A stretch of DNA of 10,807 nt from Parcubacteria group bacterium (GTDB taxonomy: Bacteria; Patescibacteriota; Minisyncoccia; Phycocordibacterales; JABMOB01). Of this stretch, positions 1-10,807 are shown piece by piece. Position 1 is the stretch's first letter. The number at the start of each line of letters is the position of its first letter. Both the position numbers and the translations under genes were made by a program. Below the pieces are notes generated by a model. The model searched no databases, was not told where the DNA came from, and saw only the letters and a program-made list of their open reading frames with translations. The stretch is taken from positions 1 through 10,807 of the forward strand of contig JABMOB010000032.1 in assembly GCA_013204345.1 (NCBI GenBank), given 5' to 3'.

Positions 1-294
1 GAGGACTTGAAACCTGATTGAGCCGAGCATAGCGAGCCAATCAGGGTACTGAAACTGTAAGTTTCAAGATTCCTCTACCCGGCACAAATTGAGCGAAGCG
101 ATATTTTGTGCCGGAACGAAAGTACGGGGGTACTTTCGTGGAGGACTTGAAACCTGATTGAGCCGAGCATAGCGAGCCAATCAGGGTACTGAAACTGTAA
201 GTTTCAAGATTCCTCTCCCCGGCACCACATAGCACAAAACCGCTCCGAGCGATTTTTGCTTTGGTGGCGGGAGAAAGTACGGGGGTACTTTCGT
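1..294 (+). repeat. Tandem 140-bp structured repeat, units 1-140 and 141-280 plus a partial third copy at 281-294. Each unit has a 77-bp constant part identical in both copies: a long imperfect stem (gaggacttgaaac ... gtttcaagattcctc) enclosing an 8-bp hairpin (cctgattg / caatcagg). This is followed by a variable ~40-55 bp hairpin (ccggcacaaa / tttgtgccgg in unit 1; a different, longer sequence that still starts ccggcac and ends ggtggcgg in unit 2). A constant perfect hairpin (gaaagtac-ggg-ggtactttc) closes the unit. Candidate tandem structured RNA; strand unknown.
   Basis: Direct reading: 1-77 is identical to 141-217. 118-140 is identical to 258-280. Stems are as listed. The unit starts a third time at 281 and ends in a T-run at 316-321. 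Confidence 0.6.
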
Positions 295-446
295 GGAGGA
301 CTTGAAAACCTTTGATAGTTTTTTGGAGCATATTTTATGAACAAAAAACAGAAAAGGTGACTAAATTCCCAAACACATACACACTGGATTATGATGTAAC
401 GCTGTCCTTAAATGCAATGAGATGTTAAAATGTCGGCAACTTAATC

Positions 447-1961
447 ATGGAAAATAATTTGATGATTTCAAATAGAAAATTTGTGCTCGAGACTGTTGTA
501 TTTGTCTGCGGAGCGGTAGTGATGATTTTTGAATTAGTTGGATCGCGCATCATTGCTCCTTATGTGGGTACCTCGATTTATGCATGGACCAGTTTAATAG
601 GAGTAATCCTTGCGAGTTTGAGTATTGGATACTATGTCGGCGGTTATTTGGCAGACAAGAAACCCAACATAAAACCAATGGCTTTAATCATTCTTTTTTC
701 CGCCGTAGCAATAGCTTTCTCAGCTTTTACAAAAGATATTTTTTCAGGGGTTATTTCGACTTTTCAGATAACCCTAGAGATGAAATCTATAATGATTTCA
801 TTGATACTCTTTGCGCCAGCTAGTTTTCTCTTAGGTATGGTTTCTCCATATGCGGTAAGACTTAGGATGAGCGACATAAATAAATCTGGAAGAATAGCAG
901 GCAATCTTTATGCTATATCAACAGCTGGTAGTATCTTCGGTACTTTTTTAGCTGGTTTTTATATCATTCCAAATTTTGGCTCAACCAATACACTAGTAAT
1001 TCTTTCTGTCGTTCTTTTATTCATGGCTGTTTTGCTGTTTTTGGGCACAAGAATAGAAAAATCTTTTAAGGTGGGAGTTTTTCTTTTAATTGTTTTCTTG
1101 GGATTAACTCAAATGGTTTCGATTATAAAACAAAAGATACTCGTGACTGATGTTGATACAGAGTATAACCGTATTTTGGTTTTTCACTCAACCGATCTTG
1201 CGACAAAAAAACCAATACTAGCTCTTGTAACTGACCCGTATGGTACTCAAGCAGCTATGTTCACTGATGGCACTAGTGACTTAGTTTTTGATTACACCAA
1301 ATTTTATCGATTATTTAGTTATTTCGTACCTAATCCCACTAATGTCCTTATGATTGGCGGTAGTGCTTACACGTACCCTCGTGATTTTATTAAGAATTAT
1401 CCAGACACAAAAATGGATGTGGTTGAAATTGATCCTGGCATGACAACTATTGCCCAAAAGTACTTCGGATTAAACGACGAAAAGAATCTTACTATTTATC
1501 ATCAAGATGCACGTATTTATTTAAACGAGAACAAAAAGAAATATGACGTCATTTTTGGTGACGCGTTTAATTCTGCATCAGCAATTCCTTTTCAACTAAC
1601 AACAAAAGAAGCTGTGATCAAAGAATACGACGCGCTCAATGACGACGGAGTAATTATGGTTAACATTATTTCAGCCATCAAAGGCGAGAAAGGAAAGTTT
1701 GCTAGGGCAGAGTACACCACATATAAAAAAATTTTTCCGCAAGTTTTTTTATTTGCGGTTCAAAATATAGATAACGGGAATGAAACTCAAAATATCATGC
1801 TTGTAGCTTTAAAGTCTGAAAAAGTTTCAAAATGGGAAAGTCCCAATAAAGAAATCAGCGGATTTCTGGCTCAAGTTTGGAAGAAGCCCATAGTCAACGA
1901 TATGCCAATACTAACAGATGATTTTGCTCCGGTGGAATACTATAAACGTGTTTCTTTATAA
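447..1961 (+). CDS. Fused polytopic membrane domain / spermidine synthase-like (polyamine aminopropyltransferase fold) protein, 504 aa
   Basis: About 7 N-terminal hydrophobic helices over residues 1-220. The C-terminal half carries the spermidine-synthase-type Rossmann core (VLMIGGSAYTYPRDF ... DVVEIDPGMTTIAQKYFGL ... YDVIFGDAFNS). This matches the widespread fused MFS/spermidine synthase architecture. The long ORF in this frame is the only credible one. Confidence 0.75.
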   Translation: MENNLMISNRKFVLETVVFVCGAVVMIFELVGSRIIAPYVGTSIYAWTSLIGVILASLSIGYYVGGYLADKKPNIKPMALIILFSAVAIAFSAFTKDIFSGVISTFQITLEMKSIMISLILFAPASFLLGMVSPYAVRLRMSDINKSGRIAGNLYAISTAGSIFGTFLAGFYIIPNFGSTNTLVILSVVLLFMAVLLFLGTRIEKSFKVGVFLLIVFLGLTQMVSIIKQKILVTDVDTEYNRILVFHSTDLATKKPILALVTDPYGTQAAMFTDGTSDLVFDYTKFYRLFSYFVPNPTNVLMIGGSAYTYPRDFIKNYPDTKMDVVEIDPGMTTIAQKYFGLNDEKNLTIYHQDARIYLNENKKKYDVIFGDAFNSASAIPFQLTTKEAVIKEYDALNDDGVIMVNIISAIKGEKGKFARAEYTTYKKIFPQVFLFAVQNIDNGNETQNIMLVALKSEKVSKWESPNKEISGFLAQVWKKPIVNDMPILTDDFAPVEYYKRVSL

Positions 1962-2025: not shown

Positions 2026-2118
2026 TAATACCATAAAGGAACATGTAGTTCCTTGACAATAAACCAACAATTTCCCGCTTTAAAACGGGAATTAAACAAA
2101 CAGAAACGGAGCACAAAA

Positions 2119-3033
2119 ATGTATTGGTCTAAAAAATTTCTACTGGCAATAAGCCTACCCTGCATCGTGATCGCCACCGTACTTTTTACGATACTTCTTG
2201 CCTCTTTGGCGAAAGTATCAAACCCTGTTGGCACAGGGTCTGCTGTCGGACTGGTAGCTGGAATTATCTTTGTTGGGCTCTTACTGCCCTACTCCAGTAT
2301 CAGTGTTGACGCGTACAAAGCAAAGGTGACCAAAGACTACTTTACGGGCAAATTGTATGCCTACACTGACAAATTCAGTCTCAGGTGGCCTTGGGAAATT
2401 CAGCAGGGAGACGAGATAATTCTCGAAAGAGAGTTTGTCGTCTCCTCTGGAGATCCTACGGTTGAAGAAATGGGAACTGACGACCATCAAGCCGTTGACG
2501 GTCCGACAATGTCTATTGGGTGGGCTATCCCCACCCGAGTCGACAAAGAACGTGTTTTGACATTCATCCAAAATGACCCGAAAACATGGAAGGTCATTCT
2601 TCACGGAATGATCGGAAAACTGGTAGGTGACGTGATCGGCAACGAACAATCAGAAAATGTTTTAAAAAAGAGAAAGGAGATCAGCGACAAGATCACTCGG
2701 GCATTCGAAGGTGATAAGAGAAATTACTTTGAGGAAATATACGGACTCAAAGTCGGACCCATCGAAATTCGTAAAGCAACTCAAGACGCCACTTCGGCAC
2801 AAGGAAGAGCTGAGATAGCCAGAGCACAAAATCGCGCAGAGGCAATCAAAGAGCTCATCGATGGAGGAGTACCAGCAGAAGAAGCAGTGCGGGCAGTTCA
2901 GTTAATGTTTGGAGAAATCGCCCCCCTGATCCACGAAGGTCTACCTCCAAACCTGAGTGTGTATGCACCAGGAGCATCAGGATTCATGGCGGGATCGGTC
3001 GGACGAGTAAAATCGGGTAATCAGAGAACTTAA
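2119..3033 (+). CDS. SPFH/band-7 (stomatin/prohibitin/HflKC-like) membrane protein, ~304 aa. The start is placed at ATG 2119 (GGAG 7 nt upstream) rather than the track's TTG at 2053.
   Basis: An N-terminal TM anchor is followed by an SPFH-like core (LRWPWEIQQGDE ... VDGPTMSIGWAIPTRVDKERVLTF ... DPKTWKV). The characteristic C-terminal coiled-coil/Ala-Glu-rich segment is present (ATSAQGRAEIARAQNRAEAIKEL). GC content is ~50%, against ~35% in flanking genes. Confidence 0.6.
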   Translation: MYWSKKFLLAISLPCIVIATVLFTILLASLAKVSNPVGTGSAVGLVAGIIFVGLLLPYSSISVDAYKAKVTKDYFTGKLYAYTDKFSLRWPWEIQQGDEIILEREFVVSSGDPTVEEMGTDDHQAVDGPTMSIGWAIPTRVDKERVLTFIQNDPKTWKVILHGMIGKLVGDVIGNEQSENVLKKRKEISDKITRAFEGDKRNYFEEIYGLKVGPIEIRKATQDATSAQGRAEIARAQNRAEAIKELIDGGVPAEEAVRAVQLMFGEIAPLIHEGLPPNLSVYAPGASGFMAGSVGRVKSGNQRT

Positions 3034-3052
3034 GCAAAACAGGAGATATGGA

Positions 3053-3574
3053 ATGACGACAACACCCACATCGATAGCAGGAACATCCGCAGTGCCCACA
3101 CAGACCCACAGGTCTGTGAATATCGGCAAGGTGGCTGGATCATGGATCATCGGAGTTACGGTAATTGTGACATTGCTAATCATAATAGCAATGGCTATCG
3201 GAAGAGTCGGAGCGGCACCAGCTCCCACCGTCTCACAAGGAGAAGGAACGCAGGTGAACAATCCGAATCCGGGGATGATACCGTTCGGACAGTATGATCT
3301 TCCCCAAAAGGGAATCATCACAGTCAACCCCGGCGATCCGAGCACCTCACCGTGCAAGGAAAACGGATGGGGCGAGGTGAGGGGACACGCAGGGTTACGT
3401 GTAGAGTACACGTGGCGAGGAAGGGTGTGGATCAAAACGGAGAGGGGTAATGAACTCCTGTCTGGAGATCCTCATTCTTTCACGGAAACTCCGGCGGCGA
3501 ACGTTGTTTGGTTTATGTCACGGGAAGACGGATCTGTGGATGTGGAATATGAGTATGTTCCACTGAAGCGCTAA
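3053..3574 (+). CDS. Small membrane-anchored hypothetical protein (173 aa), co-transcribed with the SPFH gene. Possible SPFH partner (NfeD-like role); this is speculative.
   Basis: Good SD AGGAGA at 3041-3046, 6 nt before the ATG. The product has an N-terminal Thr/Ser-rich segment, one TM helix (WIIGVTVIVTLLIIIAMAIG) and a beta-rich C-terminus. It shares the GC-rich island composition. Confidence 0.55.
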   Translation: MTTTPTSIAGTSAVPTQTHRSVNIGKVAGSWIIGVTVIVTLLIIIAMAIGRVGAAPAPTVSQGEGTQVNNPNPGMIPFGQYDLPQKGIITVNPGDPSTSPCKENGWGEVRGHAGLRVEYTWRGRVWIKTERGNELLSGDPHSFTETPAANVVWFMSREDGSVDVEYEYVPLKR

Positions 3575-3593
3575 ATCCGGCAAAGCACAAGGG

Positions 3594-3630
3594 CGGAAGG
3601 AAACGCAAGTTTCCCTCCGTCCTTTTTTTT
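3594..3630 (+). terminator. Rho-independent terminator for the SPFH operon
   Basis: An 11-bp stem (cggaaggaaac / gtttccctccg, one mismatch) with a GCAA tetraloop, followed by tcc + T8 at 3623-3630. Confidence 0.7.
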
Positions 3631-3635
3631 ATAAA

Positions 3636-3672
3636 ACAAAACCGCTCTGATCTTGTCGAAGAGCGGTTTTGT
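3636..3672 (-). terminator. Rho-independent terminator for the minus-strand pilin operon (convergent with the + terminator)
   Basis: Stem aaaaccgctc / gagcggtttt around a 13-nt loop. On the minus strand it is followed by a U-rich tract (revcomp of 3623-3637). It lies immediately downstream of the stop of CDS 3687..3953. Confidence 0.55.
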
Positions 3673-3686
3673 AAACAGAGCCTGTT

Positions 3687-3953
3687 TTATATCCCCGAAT
3701 TTGGTGGTACCGGAATTCCAAATGTTCCAAGAACAAGATTTATTATCCCGTACACCGCAACCATAATAAACAAACCGATAACCCCATACATTATATTTTT
3801 TTTGCCTTTTTCTCTCCCCTCATCACTTCCAGTCTTTCCAATAAATTGGAAAATACCAAAGAAAAAATAAGCAAAAGCAATAGCAAACATCAATCCTATT
3901 ACAGGATTCAGAATAGCAGCATTTATTTTATACAATAGGGGCCAAATCGTCAT
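3687..3953 (-). CDS. VirB2/TrbC-like (CPR T4SS-type) pilin paralog 1, 88 aa. It lacks an N-terminal cleavable signal peptide.
   Basis: Two hydrophobic helices separated by a charged loop (GSDEGREKGKKNIMYGVIGLFIMVAVYGIINL). The core aligns with the five upstream paralogs. Confidence 0.6.
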   Translation of the reverse strand: MTIWPLLYKINAAILNPVIGLMFAIAFAYFFFGIFQFIGKTGSDEGREKGKKNIMYGVIGLFIMVAVYGIINLVLGTFGIPVPPNSGI

Positions 3954-3993
3954 TATTGAGTATAGTGGTCAAAGACTAACCAGACTTAATACC

Positions 3994-4356
3994 TTAAATA
4001 TTCGGAATTGTCACAGAACTACTAGTATTATCTGTAATACCAAATACTCCCTGAAGATAACTGATAATACCGTAAAGAGAACCTGTTACAAAAAGTGCAA
4101 CGACCCCCCAAAGCATTATTTGCTTACCTTCACCTTTCTTTTCTTCATCACCAGCTGAAAGAATAAACTTTGCAACACCGTAAAAGAAATACAAAAGCTC
4201 TAGACCAAAAGCTACAGGAATGAGAGTGCGGACGATACTAGCAACTCCTCCGGCTAAATCATTCAAACCCTGAAGATTTGAACTACCAGCAGCAAAAGCC
4301 AAAGCTGGTAATGCCATTACCCCAACACCCACTATAAATTTAACTGTTTTTTTCAT
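3994..4356 (-). CDS. VirB2/TrbC-like pilin paralog 2, 120 aa, with a Sec signal peptide (AFA|AG)
   Basis: Signal peptide, helix 1 (LIPVAFGLELLYFFYGVAKFIL), charged loop (SAGDEEKKGEGKQ), helix 2 (IMLWGVVALFVTGSLYGIISYL). Confidence 0.7.
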   Translation of the reverse strand: MKKTVKFIVGVGVMALPALAFAAGSSNLQGLNDLAGGVASIVRTLIPVAFGLELLYFFYGVAKFILSAGDEEKKGEGKQIMLWGVVALFVTGSLYGIISYLQGVFGITDNTSSSVTIPNI

Positions 4357-4490
4357 TTTTATTAAATAAAACTTAATAATTAATAATAGAACACATAATA
4401 AACGACCCTTTTAAATAAATACTAAACATTACAATAATAACACATATAAATCGGTCAAGAAAGTGAACTGTGGATAAGAAAGCTCGCCAC

Positions 4491-4646
4491 TTCTTTAAAA
4501 TGACCAGAATGCTTCAGTGATAAAGAAATTATACTCGTCTCGTTTACGAAATATTGAAAACTCGGCCTATTCTGGCCTCAAACATTCAATATTTCTACTC
4601 GACTCGATAATTTCCAATCACCTCCCGCAATGGTCATTTTAAAGAA
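4491..4646. repeat. Nested inverted-repeat element inside the 462-bp gap in the pilin array. Outer 15-bp IR ttctttaaaatgacc (4491-4505 / 4632-4646). Inner 11-bp perfect IR gaaatattgaa / ttcaatatttc (4549-4559 / 4586-4596). Central ggcc-tattct-ggcc.
   Basis: Read directly from the sequence. No ORF of 60 aa or more on either strand in 4357-4818. Confidence 0.5.
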
Positions 4647-4818
4647 AAGGTTCACTTCAGTGGAAAAAATCACCTGCGGACAGTTTTAAAAAGGTTATTC
4701 CTCGCTCTTGTGGAAAGACACATGGATACTTAGTGAGCCGGTTCTCATCCACCAACGAACAAGCTCACTCTAGCAAGAGAGTGGAATATTTCACTAACAT
4801 TCATTTAAACCCCTTGAT

Positions 4819-5172
4819 TTATGGGTTATAGACAGCTGGCGCTGGTGTAGTCTCCAAACCGAGCTCATACTGAATAAAATATATGACGCCCCACAAAGAT
4901 CCCATTACAAAAATAGAAATAACGCCCCACAACATAAGACTCTTGCCCTCCTTAATAGCATCCTCATCCCCTTCTCTAGATTTAAAGACAAATTTTGCGA
5001 CTCCGTAGAAAAAAACAATCAAAGCCAAACCAAAAACAACAGGAATAACAAGATTGATCAAAGTGAGAACGGCAACTAAAAGATCCTGAACATTAGAAAT
5101 GGCAAAAACCAAAACTGGTGTAAGGATGAGAGTAATTAGTGTTAAAAATTTATACATATTATTTAAAAACAT
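4819..5172 (-). CDS. VirB2/TrbC-like pilin paralog 3, 117 aa, signal peptide (VFA|IS)
   Basis: Conserved core LIPVVFGLALIVFFYGVAKFVFKSREGDEDAIKEGKSLMLWGVISIFVMGSLWGVIYFI. Confidence 0.7.
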   Translation of the reverse strand: MFLNNMYKFLTLITLILTPVLVFAISNVQDLLVAVLTLINLVIPVVFGLALIVFFYGVAKFVFKSREGDEDAIKEGKSLMLWGVISIFVMGSLWGVIYFIQYELGLETTPAPAVYNP

Positions 5173-5175
5173 TGA

Positions 5176-5616
5176 TTAAATACAAGGCACCGAACCTATT
5201 TGATCAGCTGGTATATCGGCACAATAAGGAGCACCACCACTAGTACCCGCCGTTGGTGCATTCTCCGGTAAAAGATGGAAAGCTCCAAAACCAAAACTAT
5301 TTGTAAAAAAAGCTAAAATACCCCATATAGAGATCATTACAAATAAAGAAATAACACCCCAAATCATCAAACTCTTCCCTTCTTTGACAGAATCCTCACT
5401 ACCCCCAGCTTTGATAAATTTGACCAACCCCCAAAAGAACGAAAGAATGGCGAGACCAACTAATACTGGAATAAGTAAATTTACAATGCCTATAATAATA
5501 CCCACAAAACCCTTGAAATTTGTTGGTTGAGCGACAGCAAATACGAAAAATGGAGTGAAAGCAAAAAATCCAAAAATAACAACTGGCAAAATTTTTCGTT
5601 TATGTTTGATATTCAT
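5176..5616 (-). CDS. VirB2/TrbC-like pilin paralog 4, 146 aa, signal peptide, C-terminal Cys pair (YCADIPADQIGSVPCI)
   Basis: Core LIPVLVGLAILSFFWGLVKFIKAGGSEDSVKEGKSLMIWGVISLFVMISIWGILAFF. Separated by 3 bp from paralog 3. Confidence 0.7.
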   Translation of the reverse strand: MNIKHKRKILPVVIFGFFAFTPFFVFAVAQPTNFKGFVGIIIGIVNLLIPVLVGLAILSFFWGLVKFIKAGGSEDSVKEGKSLMIWGVISLFVMISIWGILAFFTNSFGFGAFHLLPENAPTAGTSGGAPYCADIPADQIGSVPCI

Positions 5617-5618
5617 AT

Positions 5619-6119
5619 TTAGACTCTAATTTGACTAATCGTAGCCTCAATACCATTTGCAATTACCCATGCACCCAAAAGAACGGCTGTACCAACAACA
5701 GCCCACTTGAAAGTATCTTTAGCTTTTTTAATTTTGTCTTCACTATCACCTGCTGTAACAAAAAGAAAACCAGAATATATTATGAAGATCACGGCTATAA
5801 CCGAACCTAAAGGAAGAACAACATTATTGGCAAAATCTGTGATAAGCCCTGTAAAGGTACACGACCTTAGGGGGTTGGGGAAAGTGCCTGTCTGACAGTT
5901 ATCATTTGAATTTGGGATTGGATTCGTACCACCGGTTGGATTAGGGCTTGTGCCGCCAGTGGGGATTGGATTCGTACCACCGGTTGGATTAGGGCTTGTG
6001 CCGCCGGTATGGGAATTAGCATAAGATATCTGAACAAAAGTTGGTGCCACTATAACAGCAAAAATCAATAAAAATACCCCCGTAACACACAATGTTGGTA
6101 AAAATTTTTTTATAATCAT
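5619..6119 (-). CDS. VirB2/TrbC-like pilin paralog 5, 166 aa. Signal peptide, then a Pro/Thr-rich tandem-repeat linker (TGGTSPNPTGGTNPIP x2), then a Cys-X12-Cys loop, then the pilin core.
   Basis: Core VIAVIFIIYSGFLFVTAGDSEDKIKKAKDTFKWAVVGTAVLLGAWVIANGI. Separated by 2 bp from paralog 4. Confidence 0.65.
   Translation of the reverse strand: MIIKKFLPTLCVTGVFLLIFAVIVAPTFVQISYANSHTGGTSPNPTGGTNPIPTGGTSPNPTGGTNPIPNSNDNCQTGTFPNPLRSCTFTGLITDFANNVVLPLGSVIAVIFIIYSGFLFVTAGDSEDKIKKAKDTFKWAVVGTAVLLGAWVIANGIEATISQIRV
5914..6009. repeat. 48-bp direct tandem repeat x2 (one copy 5914-5961, the second 5962-6009, with 1-2 mismatches at the 3' end) encoding the Pro/Thr/Gly linker of pilin paralog 5
   Basis: gggattggattcgtaccaccggttggattagggcttgtgccgcc repeated back-to-back. 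Confidence 0.8.
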
Positions 6120-6134
6120 AAATTTTTTATTTAA

Positions 6135-6572
6135 TTATCTAATCAAATCTAAAATAGAACCGTCCGGTAAATTTGTTCCTGAAACATCTGGTCTCAAAAG
6201 TGCGTTGGTAAGAGTATACACGATAAGCCAACCAGCCAAAACAAAGAACAAGCCCCACAAAACTTTGGTAAATATATCTTTACCTTGTTTTATTTTACTT
6301 TCATCACCCGCAGAAGTTAGAAAAAGATATCCGGCATAAATAAAAGCGGCAGCTGAAAGAGGTATGGAAAGTTGGACTAAAAAGTTTATTATATTTCTAG
6401 CGAGGATAACCAGATCATCAAAACCACACTCTCGACTTACGCCATTTACACCAGCACAATCTGGAACAATGCCAGCAGAAACAAACAAAGGCGTCATGAA
6501 CAAACCGAGTATAAAAATCGGTAAAATGAAAGCGGAAATTTTTTTAAATATTAAATTCATGTTAATTGACAC
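6135..6572 (-). CDS. VirB2/TrbC-like pilin paralog 6, 145 aa. Signal peptide (VSA|GI), Cys-X11-Cys loop, pilin core. The start could instead be the internal ATG near 6560, which would remove the 11-bp overlap with the upstream gene.
   Basis: Core AAAFIYAGYLFLTSAGDESKIKQGKDIFTKVLWGLFFVLAGWLIVYTL. Confidence 0.65.
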   Translation of the reverse strand: MSINMNLIFKKISAFILPIFILGLFMTPLFVSAGIVPDCAGVNGVSRECGFDDLVILARNIINFLVQLSIPLSAAAFIYAGYLFLTSAGDESKIKQGKDIFTKVLWGLFFVLAGWLIVYTLTNALLRPDVSGTNLPDGSILDLIR

Positions 6573-8735: not shown

Positions 8736-10807
8736 TTATAAGCAGATGAGGGACGCGATCTTGTCTCCCTCGCGTAACTTCATAATCCTAACCCCTTGAG
8801 TCTGTCTACCGAGAATAGGAATCTCTTTTATATCAACACGTATAACCTGACTTTTTTGAGAAATTGCCACCAATTCTTCTTCAGCTTCCGTCACAATCTC
8901 AACAGAAATAATATCTCCGGTCTTTGGCGTTACTTTCGCTGTTTTGATACCACTTCCACCTCGTTTTTGTATTTTATATTCGTCAATTTCAGTTCGCTTT
9001 CCATAACCATTGCTACTAATCACCAAAAGAGTTGGGTTTGTATATTCTTTCTTTATGATTCGTGCACCAATAATTTTATCACCCTTTCCAAGTTTTATTC
9101 CACGAACTCCAGAAGCCCCCCTTCCCATTTCTCTAATATCAGATTCTTTGAAACGAATTGACTGACCTTTGGAAGTCACCACAGAAATGCTGTCGCCTTT
9201 GTTTACAAACGAAGCAGAAATAAGATCATCATCGTCATGAAGCCCGATAGCGATGAGACCGCTCCTTCGCACCTCAAGAAAACTTTCTGATTTAACTTTT
9301 TTAGTAATACCATTTTTTGTCACCATAATGATTGATGATCCCGATCCTTTTGTCTCTTTTGGCATTGGCAAAACAGAAGTAACTTGCTCCCCTTCCGCAA
9401 GCGAAAGATAATTCATGATTGATTTACCTTTTGTGGCGCGTTTACCTTCCGGAAGATCATACATTTTTATCTGATAAGCCTTACCTTTATCAGTAAAGAA
9501 AAGGATGTCGCTATGAGTACTTGCCGTAAGAAGGGTCGTCACAAAATCTTCCTCTTTTGTATCTAAGTCAACCACACCTACACCTCCGCGTTTTTGTTTT
9601 TTAAATTCGTTTGGATTTGTTCGTTTGATATATCCACCAGCAGTCAAGACAAGGGCGTTTTCTTCGTCTGGCACGAGATCTTCCACAGAAATAATCTTGA
9701 CCCCACCTTTGATGACACGAGTGCGTCTTTCGTCACCATATTTTTCTCTGATTTCTTTGAGCTCATCTTTGATTATGGTGAGCATTCTTTTTGGACTTGC
9801 CAAAATTTCTTTGAGTTTAGTGATAAGTTCTTGGGTAGCTTTCAAATCATCTTCAATTTTCTTTCTTTCAAGACCGGCGAGTCTCTGAAGCTTCATCTCC
9901 AAAATTGCTGTTGCCTGTCTATCAGAAAATTTAAACTCCTTCATCAATGCCTTGTGAGCCTCCACAGTATCGCGAGCAGCGCGAATAAGTTTTATTATGC
10001 GATCAATATGATCCAGAGCTTTTTTCAAACCAAGTAAAATATGCTCCTTATCCAACGCCTTATTTAGATCGAACTCTGTTCTTCGCTTTACGACAATAAC
10101 TCTATGCTCAATAAAATCAGCAAGAATACTCTTTAAAGATAATGTTTGAGGCACACCCTTTACTAAAGCAACAAGGTTAAAGTGGAAAGTTTCTTCCAAT
10201 TGTGTGTGTTTGTATAGAGAGTTTAAAACCTTTTGAGGATGTCCCCCACCTTTCAAATCAATAACAATGCGGATATCTTTTGCCGATTCGTCACGTAGAC
10301 CTTTGATACCTTCAATTTTCTTTTCTCGATGAAGATCAGCAATCTTCATAATGAGATCTGCTTTGTTTACACGATATGGAATCGAACTTATGATAATCTG
10401 CGTTTGCCCAGCTTTACTTTCAACAATCTCAGCTACACCGCGCGTCACTACCCCACCTCGGCCAGTCGCATAAGCGTGATGAATATCTTTTTCATTAAAA
10501 ATAACCCCACCTGTAGGAAAATCTGGTCCTTTTATAAATTGCAAAAGCTCTTCGGTCGTCGCGTCTTTATTGTCAATAAGATAGCTTGTAGCATCTACCA
10601 CTTCACCCAGATGATGAGGAGGGATGTTCGTCGCCATACCAACAGCAATACCCGAAGCCCCATTCAAAAACAAAGCCGGCAACTTACCCGGCATAATCTC
10701 CGGCTCGTCCAAAGTATTATCATAATTCTTAACCATATCAACCGTCGCCTTATCAACATCAACCAAAATCTCATCAGAAATCTTCTCCATCTTCGCCTCA
10801 GTATACC
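8736..10807 (-). CDS. gyrA: DNA gyrase subunit A, C-terminal ~690 codons. The gene continues past the window end. The track ORF starts at an internal Met; homology places that Met roughly 120-130 residues into E. coli GyrA.
   Basis: LFLNGASGIAVGMATNIPPHHLGEV ... GPDFPTGG (the type IIA topoisomerase A-subunit breakage-reunion domain). A C-terminal beta-pinwheel repeat domain with a GyrA-box-like QKRGGVG favours gyrase over topo IV. Confidence 0.85.
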   Translation of the reverse strand, partial: YTEAKMEKISDEILVDVDKATVDMVKNYDNTLDEPEIMPGKLPALFLNGASGIAVGMATNIPPHHLGEVVDATSYLIDNKDATTEELLQFIKGPDFPTGGVIFNEKDIHHAYATGRGGVVTRGVAEIVESKAGQTQIIISSIPYRVNKADLIMKIADLHREKKIEGIKGLRDESAKDIRIVIDLKGGGHPQKVLNSLYKHTQLEETFHFNLVALVKGVPQTLSLKSILADFIEHRVIVVKRRTEFDLNKALDKEHILLGLKKALDHIDRIIKLIRAARDTVEAHKALMKEFKFSDRQATAILEMKLQRLAGLERKKIEDDLKATQELITKLKEILASPKRMLTIIKDELKEIREKYGDERRTRVIKGGVKIISVEDLVPDEENALVLTAGGYIKRTNPNEFKKQKRGGVGVVDLDTKEEDFVTTLLTASTHSDILFFTDKGKAYQIKMYDLPEGKRATKGKSIMNYLSLAEGEQVTSVLPMPKETKGSGSSIIMVTKNGITKKVKSESFLEVRRSGLIAIGLHDDDDLISASFVNKGDSISVVTSKGQSIRFKESDIREMGRGASGVRGIKLGKGDKIIGARIIKKEYTNPTLLVISSNGYGKRTEIDEYKIQKRGGSGIKTAKVTPKTGDIISVEIVTEAEEELVAISQKSQVIRVDIKEIPILGRQTQGVRIMKLREGDKIASLICL

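Follow-up and report, generated by a model that had tools for sequence, protein, structure and literature searches.

A structured long-repeat array at a Parcubacteria contig end, unmatched among known RNA and repeat families

What kind of element is the tandem array of hairpins that occupies positions 1-308 of contig JABMOB010000032.1 (assembly GCA_013204345.1)? The window analysed here is that entire 10,807-bp contig, which belongs to a metagenome-assembled genome of the Parcubacteria (Candidate Phyla Radiation [CPR]/Patescibacteria). The host is a tiny-celled bacterium of the groundwater type. CPR genomes are tiny and gene-dense, and only a small number of non-coding elements are known from them. 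A non-coding, GC-rich stretch that runs for more than 300 bp and is both near-perfectly repeated and multi-helix is therefore unusual for the CPR, the more so as it is found in one lineage only. The array lies at the very edge of the contig and is lineage-restricted, non-coding and GC-rich; in it, copies of a virtually invariant multi-helix repeat of 108 nt are separated by short self-complementary inserts that vary in length. It is a real, orphan, highly structured long-repeat array that matches no known RNA or repeat family. The favoured explanation is tentative (probability roughly 0.3): the array may be transcribed into RNA modules that each combine a constant scaffold with a variable segment, with a partner encoded off the contig. 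A palindromic repeat cluster that acts at the DNA level is almost as likely.

The array is built from two sets of direct repeats. Positions 1-85 recur at 141-225 (84 of 85 nt match, the sole mismatch being 77/217) and positions 118-152 recur unchanged at 273-307 (35/35 nt, 100%). One copy of the constant part is cut by the contig edge (1-85), one is complete, and the last comprises 36 nt only (273-308). Between the constant copies lie the inserts V1 (86-117, 32 nt) and V2 (226-272, 47 nt), and the array has periods of 140 and then 155 bp. The boundaries between constant and variable parts are abrupt (85/86 and 225/226): the constant part shows one difference in 108 nt, whereas the V segments next door differ by indels and by substitutions at about one third of positions. 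The GC content is 0.50 in the array and 0.33-0.37 in the flanks. The array was not reported by Tandem Repeats Finder. An earlier reading, made from the sequence alone, had described two complete units of a 140-bp repeat plus the start of a third, with a constant part of 100 bp identical between copies. The repetition itself is confirmed, but only one constant copy is complete, the 140-bp period holds for the first interval and not for the second, and the constant part is in fact 108 nt with one mismatch. The perfect 8-bp hairpin of that reading (hairpin A below) was recovered by repeat finding, as was its long stem enclosing another perfect 8-bp hairpin (hairpin C), which folding also returned. 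The features are as follows, with strand given where one applies.

1-13: arm B5' of the unit cut by the contig edge, GAGGACTTGAAAC, identical to 141-153
13-45: hairpin C, copy 1, with a perfect 8-bp stem (CCTGATTG/CAATCAGG) and a 17-nt apex with GAGC-ATA-GCGA (repeat finding and folds)
46-60: linker GTACTGAAACTGTAA, 15 nt; its TGAAAC could pair with GTTTCA of the next arm to form an alternative 6-bp hairpin (minus-strand fold)
61-78: arm B3', GTTTCAAG-AT-TCCTCTAC; its partner would be 1-13 (register 1, around hairpin C) or 138-153 (register 2, around V1 and hairpin A)
79-114: variable hairpin V1, with a perfect 10-bp stem (CCGGCACAAA/TTTGTGCCGG) and apex TTGAGCGAAGCGATAT (-18.7 kcal/mol, z -6.2)
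118-225: the one complete constant repeat, 108 nt, with hairpin A, arm B5', hairpin C, linker, arm B3' and CCGGCAC in succession; the first 35 nt recur at 273-307 and the last 85 nt match 1-85 (84/85)
118-137: hairpin A, copy 1, GAAAGTAC-GGGG-GTACTTTC, with a perfect 8-bp stem
138-153: arm B5', GTGGAGGACTTGAAAC, which closes a helix with 61-78; helix 1 has 13/13 pairs formed in both units
153-185: hairpin C, copy 2, with the same perfect 8-bp stem (CCTGATTG/CAATCAGG; repeat finding)
201-218: arm B3', copy 2, GTTTCAAGATTCCTCTCC, which holds the only substitution of the constant part (A77 to C217)
219-271: variable hairpin V2, with the outer stem of V1 save for one G.G mismatch, plus the additional stem segments CACCA..AGCA / TGCT..TGGTG and the core AAAACCGCTCCGAGCGATTTTT (-27.0 kcal/mol, z -4.9)
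273-292: hairpin A, copy 2, GAAAGTAC/GTACTTTC, with a perfect 8-bp stem
293-308: terminal arm B5', GTGGAGGACTTGAAAA, with a C-to-A change at its last base; the 201-308 module is closed by this arm, where the array ends
309-323, plus strand: T-rich tract CCTTTGATAGTTTTTTGG, directly 3' of the last long helix, noted by eye as a candidate weak terminator

Hairpin A is present in two copies in the window and none outside the array (0.01 expected by chance), and arm B5' is likewise confined to the array within the window (approximately 0 in shuffles). Hairpin C is flanked by the enclosing arms GAGGACTTGAAAC and GTTTCAAG-AT-TCCTC, and the consensus of arm B3' over the units is GTTTCAAG-AT-TCCTCTMC. 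The T-rich tract at 309-323 was not called by a simple terminator scan; the T-run within it (316-321) lies 126 nt ahead of the ATG at 447 of the spermidine-synthase-like gene, in agreement with the earlier figure of about 125 bp. A degenerate fourth copy past 308 was considered and rejected, with an alignment of 309-380 to the next expected part of the repeat scoring below the shuffle mean.

Positions 1-330 are predicted to fold at -138 kcal/mol on the plus strand (z -8.1 relative to shuffles) and at -123.9 kcal/mol on the minus strand (z -8.7), and these values, together with the direct repeats, bear out the description of a genuine, highly structured tandem element. Two pairing registers, which would compete for the same arms, are predicted. 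In register 1, which is that of the sequence-only reading, hairpin C is enclosed by the B5' and B3' arms of its own unit (1-77; -26.5 kcal/mol, z -3.9). In register 2, B3' pairs with B5' of the next unit over 16 bp with a 2-nt bulge, enclosing a three-way junction that holds V and hairpin A (61-153; -47.2 kcal/mol, z -8.8); the second module of this kind, 201-308, folds at -49.2 kcal/mol. In register 2 the start of the third unit is exactly the arm required to close the last helix, and there the array stops.

The two inserts were previously said to differ completely in sequence. They have in common an outer 7-bp stem and 14 of the 21 positions in an aligned 21-nt core, and V2 can be described as V1 with extra complementary stem segments on both arms. 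The outer stem pairs CCGGCAC with GTGCCGG in V1 and with GTGGCGG in V2; the claim that both inserts end as the complement of their first seven bases is therefore right for V1 but off by one G.G mismatch for V2. The prediction that both inserts form hairpins stands (z-scores above). Guide targets of the V segments were not found beyond chance level (at most 3 mismatches in 16 nt or at most 5 in 20 nt) in the window and 38 loci. Complementarity of the V segments to the start of the downstream gene was rejected as well, the 8-9-nt matches being at chance level among 20 such pairs.

The array begins exactly at the contig start and its first period (140) is near common k-mer sizes, as an assembly artefact might, but such an artefact is hardly credible. 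The two units have different V sequences. An independent 29-kb contig from the Joint Genome Institute (JGI), derived from the same organism (L038), also starts at window position 1 and matches the window without a difference over 1-340. In a second, separate run, a Logan contig starts at window position 278, where a 31-mer first becomes unique by holding the distinguishing base 308, and it confirms the junction between the last repeat and unique sequence. The window itself opens with 76 nt common to both units, just ahead of their sole difference at 77/217. Contigs built from a de Bruijn graph would be expected to break at just these points around a true repeat, and the array can therefore be taken as real. 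All three assemblies break inside it, and further units, which the sequence-only reading had anticipated from the position at the edge, or a partner gene would therefore lie off the contig.

The array is non-coding. Its periods of 140 and 155 bp do not preserve a reading frame. Peptides from all six frames of the array were also combined into one query, designed to catch spurious open reading frames (ORFs) on similar arrays, and this returned none among 5.8 billion proteins. Hairpins A, C and V lie outside every convincing ORF. A protein-coding repeat was considered for the 96-aa minus-strand ORF at 41-331 and rejected; this ORF reads successive units in different frames and is without homologue. 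No tRNA or tmRNA was detected with ARAGORN. A search of the whole window against Rfam 15 (including the CRISPR-DR, tracrRNA, HEARO, IS605-orfB, STAXI and self-cleaving ribozyme families) gave nothing at the gathering threshold, so the check proposed earlier identified no known family. At a threshold of E<=10, positions 1-600 gave only four chance-level matches (13-14 bits), one of which overlaps the array (MDR-NUDIX, 13.4 bits, 54-114) while the other three lie at 337-558.

Relatives of the array were not found in any collection searched. Exact and gapped DNA patterns of the constant part gave 0 matches in 185,579 species genomes and 5 in JGI metagenome contigs, all of which proved on inspection to be chance; in viral contigs they gave either 0 matches or 19 spurious ones that trace to a coding gene of a phage. 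The phage and plasmid collections contained no blastn match to 1-330, and a degenerate back-translation scan of viral contigs returned nothing related. A covariance model of the three-way-junction module recovered only its two source copies when run on 143 kb of related loci, and no other copy of the array is present in approximately 11.7 kb of the same genome outside it (window plus L038 1-11961). The constant core of the sequence-only reading was thus found twice within the array and not in the rest of the window, L038, the species genomes, the metagenome contigs or the viral contigs. A chance pattern match in a high-GC soil contig (L001 4451-4580) has a palindrome cluster of its own (GGAGGACTTGAAAC / GTTTCAAGTCC) and short direct repeats; it scores 9.7 bits with the covariance model and is unrelated to the array.

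The gene downstream of the array (447-1961, plus strand) encodes a fusion of a major facilitator superfamily (MFS) protein and spermidine synthase (NF037959, 288 bits). The array is missing upstream of all of its sampled orthologues (0/6; 80-86% aa identity; P0002, P0003, P0004 and P0014), where the covariance model was also blank. The upstream neighbours of the orthologues are a tRNA-Leu-like gene (L007-L009), VapBC (L010), an XRE-type helix-turn-helix gene (L030-L036) or a short unrelated ORF (L037), and the neighbourhood of the spermidine-synthase-like gene is highly variable among relatives. As the array is absent from six orthologous loci, it is accessory, and the earlier suggestion of a transcribed leader of this gene fails in the sense of a conserved leader. 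The tRNA-Leu-like gene, recognized by eye, stands at the position of the array in L007 (9790-9880) and L009 (100-190), where the spermidine-synthase-like protein is 86% identical.

The proposed model for the array as an RNA element is as follows. A single precursor transcript would be made, probably from the plus strand and from a promoter left of the contig end. B3' of one unit and B5' of the next would form the bulged 16-bp helix that closes a three-way junction of V (variable) and A (constant), and successive junctions would be joined by hairpin C and 15 nt of single strand. Alternatively, B5' and B3' of the same unit may pair around hairpin C to give a hairpin, scaffold and variable tail, as in an omega-RNA or single-guide RNA. 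The long helix is a plausible cut site for a double-strand-specific RNase, which would split the precursor into units, and the variable hairpin may carry the part specific to each unit, such as binding or targeting specificity. Every element of this model, from transcription and its strand to processing and the protein partner, is inferred. This reading is favoured because the GC content of 0.50 against 0.33-0.37 is what is expected of a structured RNA in an AT-rich genome, because the architecture is nested and multi-helical (z -8.1 for the whole region and -8.8 for 61-153), because constancy at 107 of 108 positions abuts a diverged V at a sharp boundary, and because the end of the array coincides exactly with the closing of its last long helix (308), with a T-rich tract coming next. 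The array is also non-coding and is accessory in the manner of defence- or mobile-element-linked arrays, both of which likewise support the RNA reading. If true, an RNA array of constant scaffold and exchangeable hairpin would be a new format in the CRISPR, TIGR and omega-RNA family and would point to an unseen partner protein.

A precedent that also speaks for the RNA reading is found in the omega-RNA-like arrays reported beside TnpB, Cas12f and type V-U genes, which are irregular and have repeats of >60 bp with sharp boundaries between scaffold and guide (Altae-Tran et al., PNAS 2023, PMC10691335). CRISPR and TIGR arrays share the design of constant scaffold and variable segment. By analogy, it is these long-repeat arrays of TnpB/Cas12f genes that the design of the present array appears to resemble most closely. 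In both, the repeat is far beyond CRISPR length (108 nt here), spacing is irregular, and a structured constant part gives way sharply to a variable segment on its 3' side. In register 1, the unit would read as hairpin, anti-repeat-like arm, hairpin linker, repeat-like arm and variable tail, which is the layout of an omega-RNA or Cas12 single-guide RNA. In contrast to those arrays, no TnpB or Cas12 gene is in view on this contig, which starts inside the array, and neither sequence nor Rfam similarity to known omega-RNAs emerged for it. A bolder form of the model would make the array a natural multiplex of self-contained scaffold-plus-variable-segment RNAs (single-guide- or omega-RNA-like). Their RNA-binding effector would be encoded immediately beyond the left edge of the contig, and V would be freed by cleavage of the 16-bp inter-unit helix. 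The array would then be of a new type that is neither CRISPR nor TIGR, but this form of the model is a long shot.

A number of findings weigh against the RNA reading. The sequence-only reading had taken covariation between the variable hairpins as the mark of a functional RNA, which did not survive the analysis. In an alignment of the two units to a 42-pair structure (93% of cells paired), the compensatory changes sought between the units are lacking: 0 pairs changed on both sides and 1 on one side, in only two copies whose hairpins are homologous. That structure was kept despite sequence change is thus not demonstrated, and DNA palindromy explains it as well as selection on RNA does, because both strands fold equally well. 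The equally good folding of both strands is itself a point against an RNA, and the G.U positions indicate no consistent strand, with the wobble T76.G140 favouring the plus strand and one U.G in V2 favouring the minus strand. V1 and V2 are mutually homologous and both palindromic, with flanks that pair, unlike foreign-derived guides and unlike what would be expected from the guides of omega-RNA-like arrays, and at its apex V1 (ATTGAGCGAAGC) is similar to hairpin C (ATTGAGCCGAGC). As protospacers, V1 and V2 have no exact match in the viral contigs. No partner gene is present among the genes in the 10.5 kb right of the array, the left side being beyond the contig end. The empty Rfam, phage and plasmid searches count in the same direction, and with no relative anywhere searched, comparative testing is impossible.

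The exclusion of repetitive extragenic palindromic (REP) elements and miniature inverted-repeat transposable elements (MITEs) by the sequence-only reading was premature. In its place stands the rival mentioned at the outset, a REP-like or bacterial interspersed mosaic element (BIME)-like cluster or a nested MITE-like element, selfish or structural. Its hairpins would simply follow from palindromic DNA, and those in any RNA would be incidental or at most stabilize mRNA 3' ends. REP/BIME clusters and small palindromic MITEs (ERIC, Correia, BOX and bcr1) are dispersed in tens to hundreds of copies. Like them, the array is extragenic and GC-rich, varies in presence between relatives and is a tandem mosaic of distinct, imperfect palindromes and fixed linkers that folds on both strands. 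Nearly all of its helices are perfect Watson-Crick helices, neither a G.U strand bias nor covariation is seen, the length differences in V come from complementary segments in both of its arms, a trait of long palindromes, and the B arms resemble 16-bp terminal inverted repeats. Against such a cluster, however, the array is known from one locus: no second copy of any module lies in the other 10.5 kb of the window, in the additional approximately 1.2 kb of L038 or in the genome, metagenome and viral collections. The bases flanking either register, as read from the sequence, are unduplicated and thus give no target-site duplication, and adjacent constant parts identical at 107 of 108 positions beside one hypervariable module are atypical of REP clusters. 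If true, this would be among the few such elements described in the CPR and an example of DNA palindromes mimicking structure-preserving RNA evolution. A smaller share of the probability goes to an intergenic segment rich in hairpins, including one of terminator type, that was recently duplicated in tandem on the spot. Its long V palindrome would later have been rearranged by replication slippage or template switching, and it would have no dedicated function beyond termination or insulation between an upstream gene and the spermidine-synthase-like gene. Only two units are observed, both V cores have the A-tract/GC hairpin/T-tract form of bidirectional terminators, and the core of V2 has an exact 12-mer, ACAAAACCGCTC, in common with the terminator at 3634-3677, as well as an arm GAGCG..TTTT (equalled in 25/1000 shuffles). 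The extra segments of V2 are bordered by short direct repeats of a kind that mediates slippage (GCAC..GCAC and TTTG..TTTG, noted by inspection). This history would nevertheless require several independent changes in V (two symmetric indels, approximately 7 core and 3 flank substitutions) against 1 in the adjacent 108 nt, a contrast that is better explained by a cassette-like or selected scaffold than by drift after duplication. The V stems also bury their own T-tracts, which makes them poor terminators (the scan calls none), and the 50% GC content and elaborate nested helices would be left unexplained.

The other readings are far less probable. A riboswitch- or attenuator-like cis-regulatory leader of the fused MFS/spermidine synthase gene would fit an array that has the orientation of the gene, lies approximately 140 nt upstream and offers alternative pairings (TGAAAC or CTTGAAAC, each with GTTTCAAG), yet is very unlikely: the array is missing from the six orthologues, it is separated from the gene by a T-rich tract and by 138 nt of AT-rich spacer in which a promoter-like site (366-395) occurs, no Rfam family matches, and identical tandem copies are unlike the usual build of a leader. 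Scarcely more can be said for a canonical CRISPR (clustered regularly interspaced short palindromic repeats) array, a TIGR (tandem interspaced guide RNA) array or the antitoxin repeat of a type III toxin-antitoxin system (ToxI-like), which the anatomy largely refutes. A 36-nt stretch, GAAAGTACGGGGGTACTTTCGTGGAGGACTTGAAAC, is CRISPR-like in length, with an internal hairpin and a ...TTGAAAC end, and occurs at the start and end of the array, its last copy being mutated at the final base. As in CRISPR, a constant repeat with complementary termini alternates with variable inserts that can be drawn as loops, the last repeat is mutated at its end, one flank is AT-rich and the distribution is accessory. 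A 36-nt repeat would, however, imply "spacers" of 104 and 119 nt of which 71 of the first 72 nt are identical. CRISPR repeats are approximately 23-50 nt with unique spacers of similar length, whereas here the repeat is 108 nt and the inserts (32 and 47 nt) are mutually related. No cas genes occur in the 10.5 kb right of the array, the left side lying beyond the contig end in all three assemblies, and no CRISPR-DR family matches, so the earlier statement that this is no canonical CRISPR array holds. The repeats of ToxI, CptI and TenpI are invariant units of 34-45 nt followed by a toxin endoribonuclease gene. Like them, the array is an accessory tandem of near-identical structured repeats with a fractional last copy and a terminator-like tract next to it, but at 140-155 nt its units are longer and include a variable module, and its neighbour on the plus strand is the spermidine-synthase-like gene, a housekeeping-type enzyme gene. 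TIGR arrays are present in CPR bacteria and comprise dual-repeat and stem-loop types (Faure et al., Science 2025, PMC12045711). Their units of approximately 36 nt contain 8-12-nt repeats, two 9-12-nt spacers and flanking 2-3-nt box C/D motifs, and the stem-loop type holds both spacers in its loop (PMC12045711). The CPR host, tandem units with variable yet consistently palindromic stems, and a truncated final repeat followed by a terminator-like tract are points of likeness. In contrast to TIGR arrays, 108 nt are constant here, 8-12-nt repeats do not alternate with 9-nt spacers, and the apices of the variable hairpins (3-16 nt) leave no room for two spacers. A Tas (Nop-domain) gene was not found among the window proteins, the left flank being beyond the contig end.

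Four further candidates were considered and rejected. For a hammerhead or other ribozyme, CUGAUUGA is off-consensus and no Rfam ribozyme family is among the E<=10 matches on 1-600. For an integron attC site, TTGAAAC and GTTTCAA each miss the consensus (R'' RYYYAAC and R' GTTRRRY) at 3 positions, and the spacing is 47 nt without an ORF. Half-sites similar to those of parS occur but are never adjacent. For a retron non-coding RNA, the msd-like hairpin is not long enough, and the array is not followed by a reverse transcriptase gene.

The rest of the contig is an ordinary CPR chromosome, with the fused MFS/spermidine synthase gene, six paralogues resembling type IV secretion system (T4SS) pilins, a solute-binding protein, a methyltransferase and gyrA. 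The two plus-strand genes at 2053-3574 have a GC content of 48%, like that of the array, in a contig of 33-37% GC. Both encode predicted membrane proteins, as judged from hydrophobic N-terminal segments. One (304/326 aa) has a weak Band_7/SPFH match and no homologue but itself among 5.8 billion proteins, and the other (173 aa) has no family match. This gene pair may be a recently acquired orphan island. It was considered as a partner of the array and set aside, no link having been found. Two back-to-back terminators lie between convergent genes at 3592-3677. The second, ACAAAACCGCTCT...AGAGCGGTTTTGT (3634-3677), is bidirectional, and its arm is similar to the V2 core.

At the far end of the contig, the last approximately 155 nt (10653-10807, in gyrA) differ from L038 10653-10807 at 65 of 155 positions (approximately 58% identical) in contigs that are otherwise near-identical, which suggests a chimeric join or a strain-variant end. 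Between 4357 and 4818, 460 nt separating two pilin-like genes contain no ORF of >41 aa and have no Rfam match. The six minus-strand paralogues, which encode small T4SS-pilin/TrbC-like membrane proteins, are consecutive at 3687-6572. One of these pilin-like genes (5619-6119, minus strand) contains a perfect 48-bp tandem duplication at 5914-6005 (1.9 copies, 100% identity), an in-frame repeat of 16 codons.

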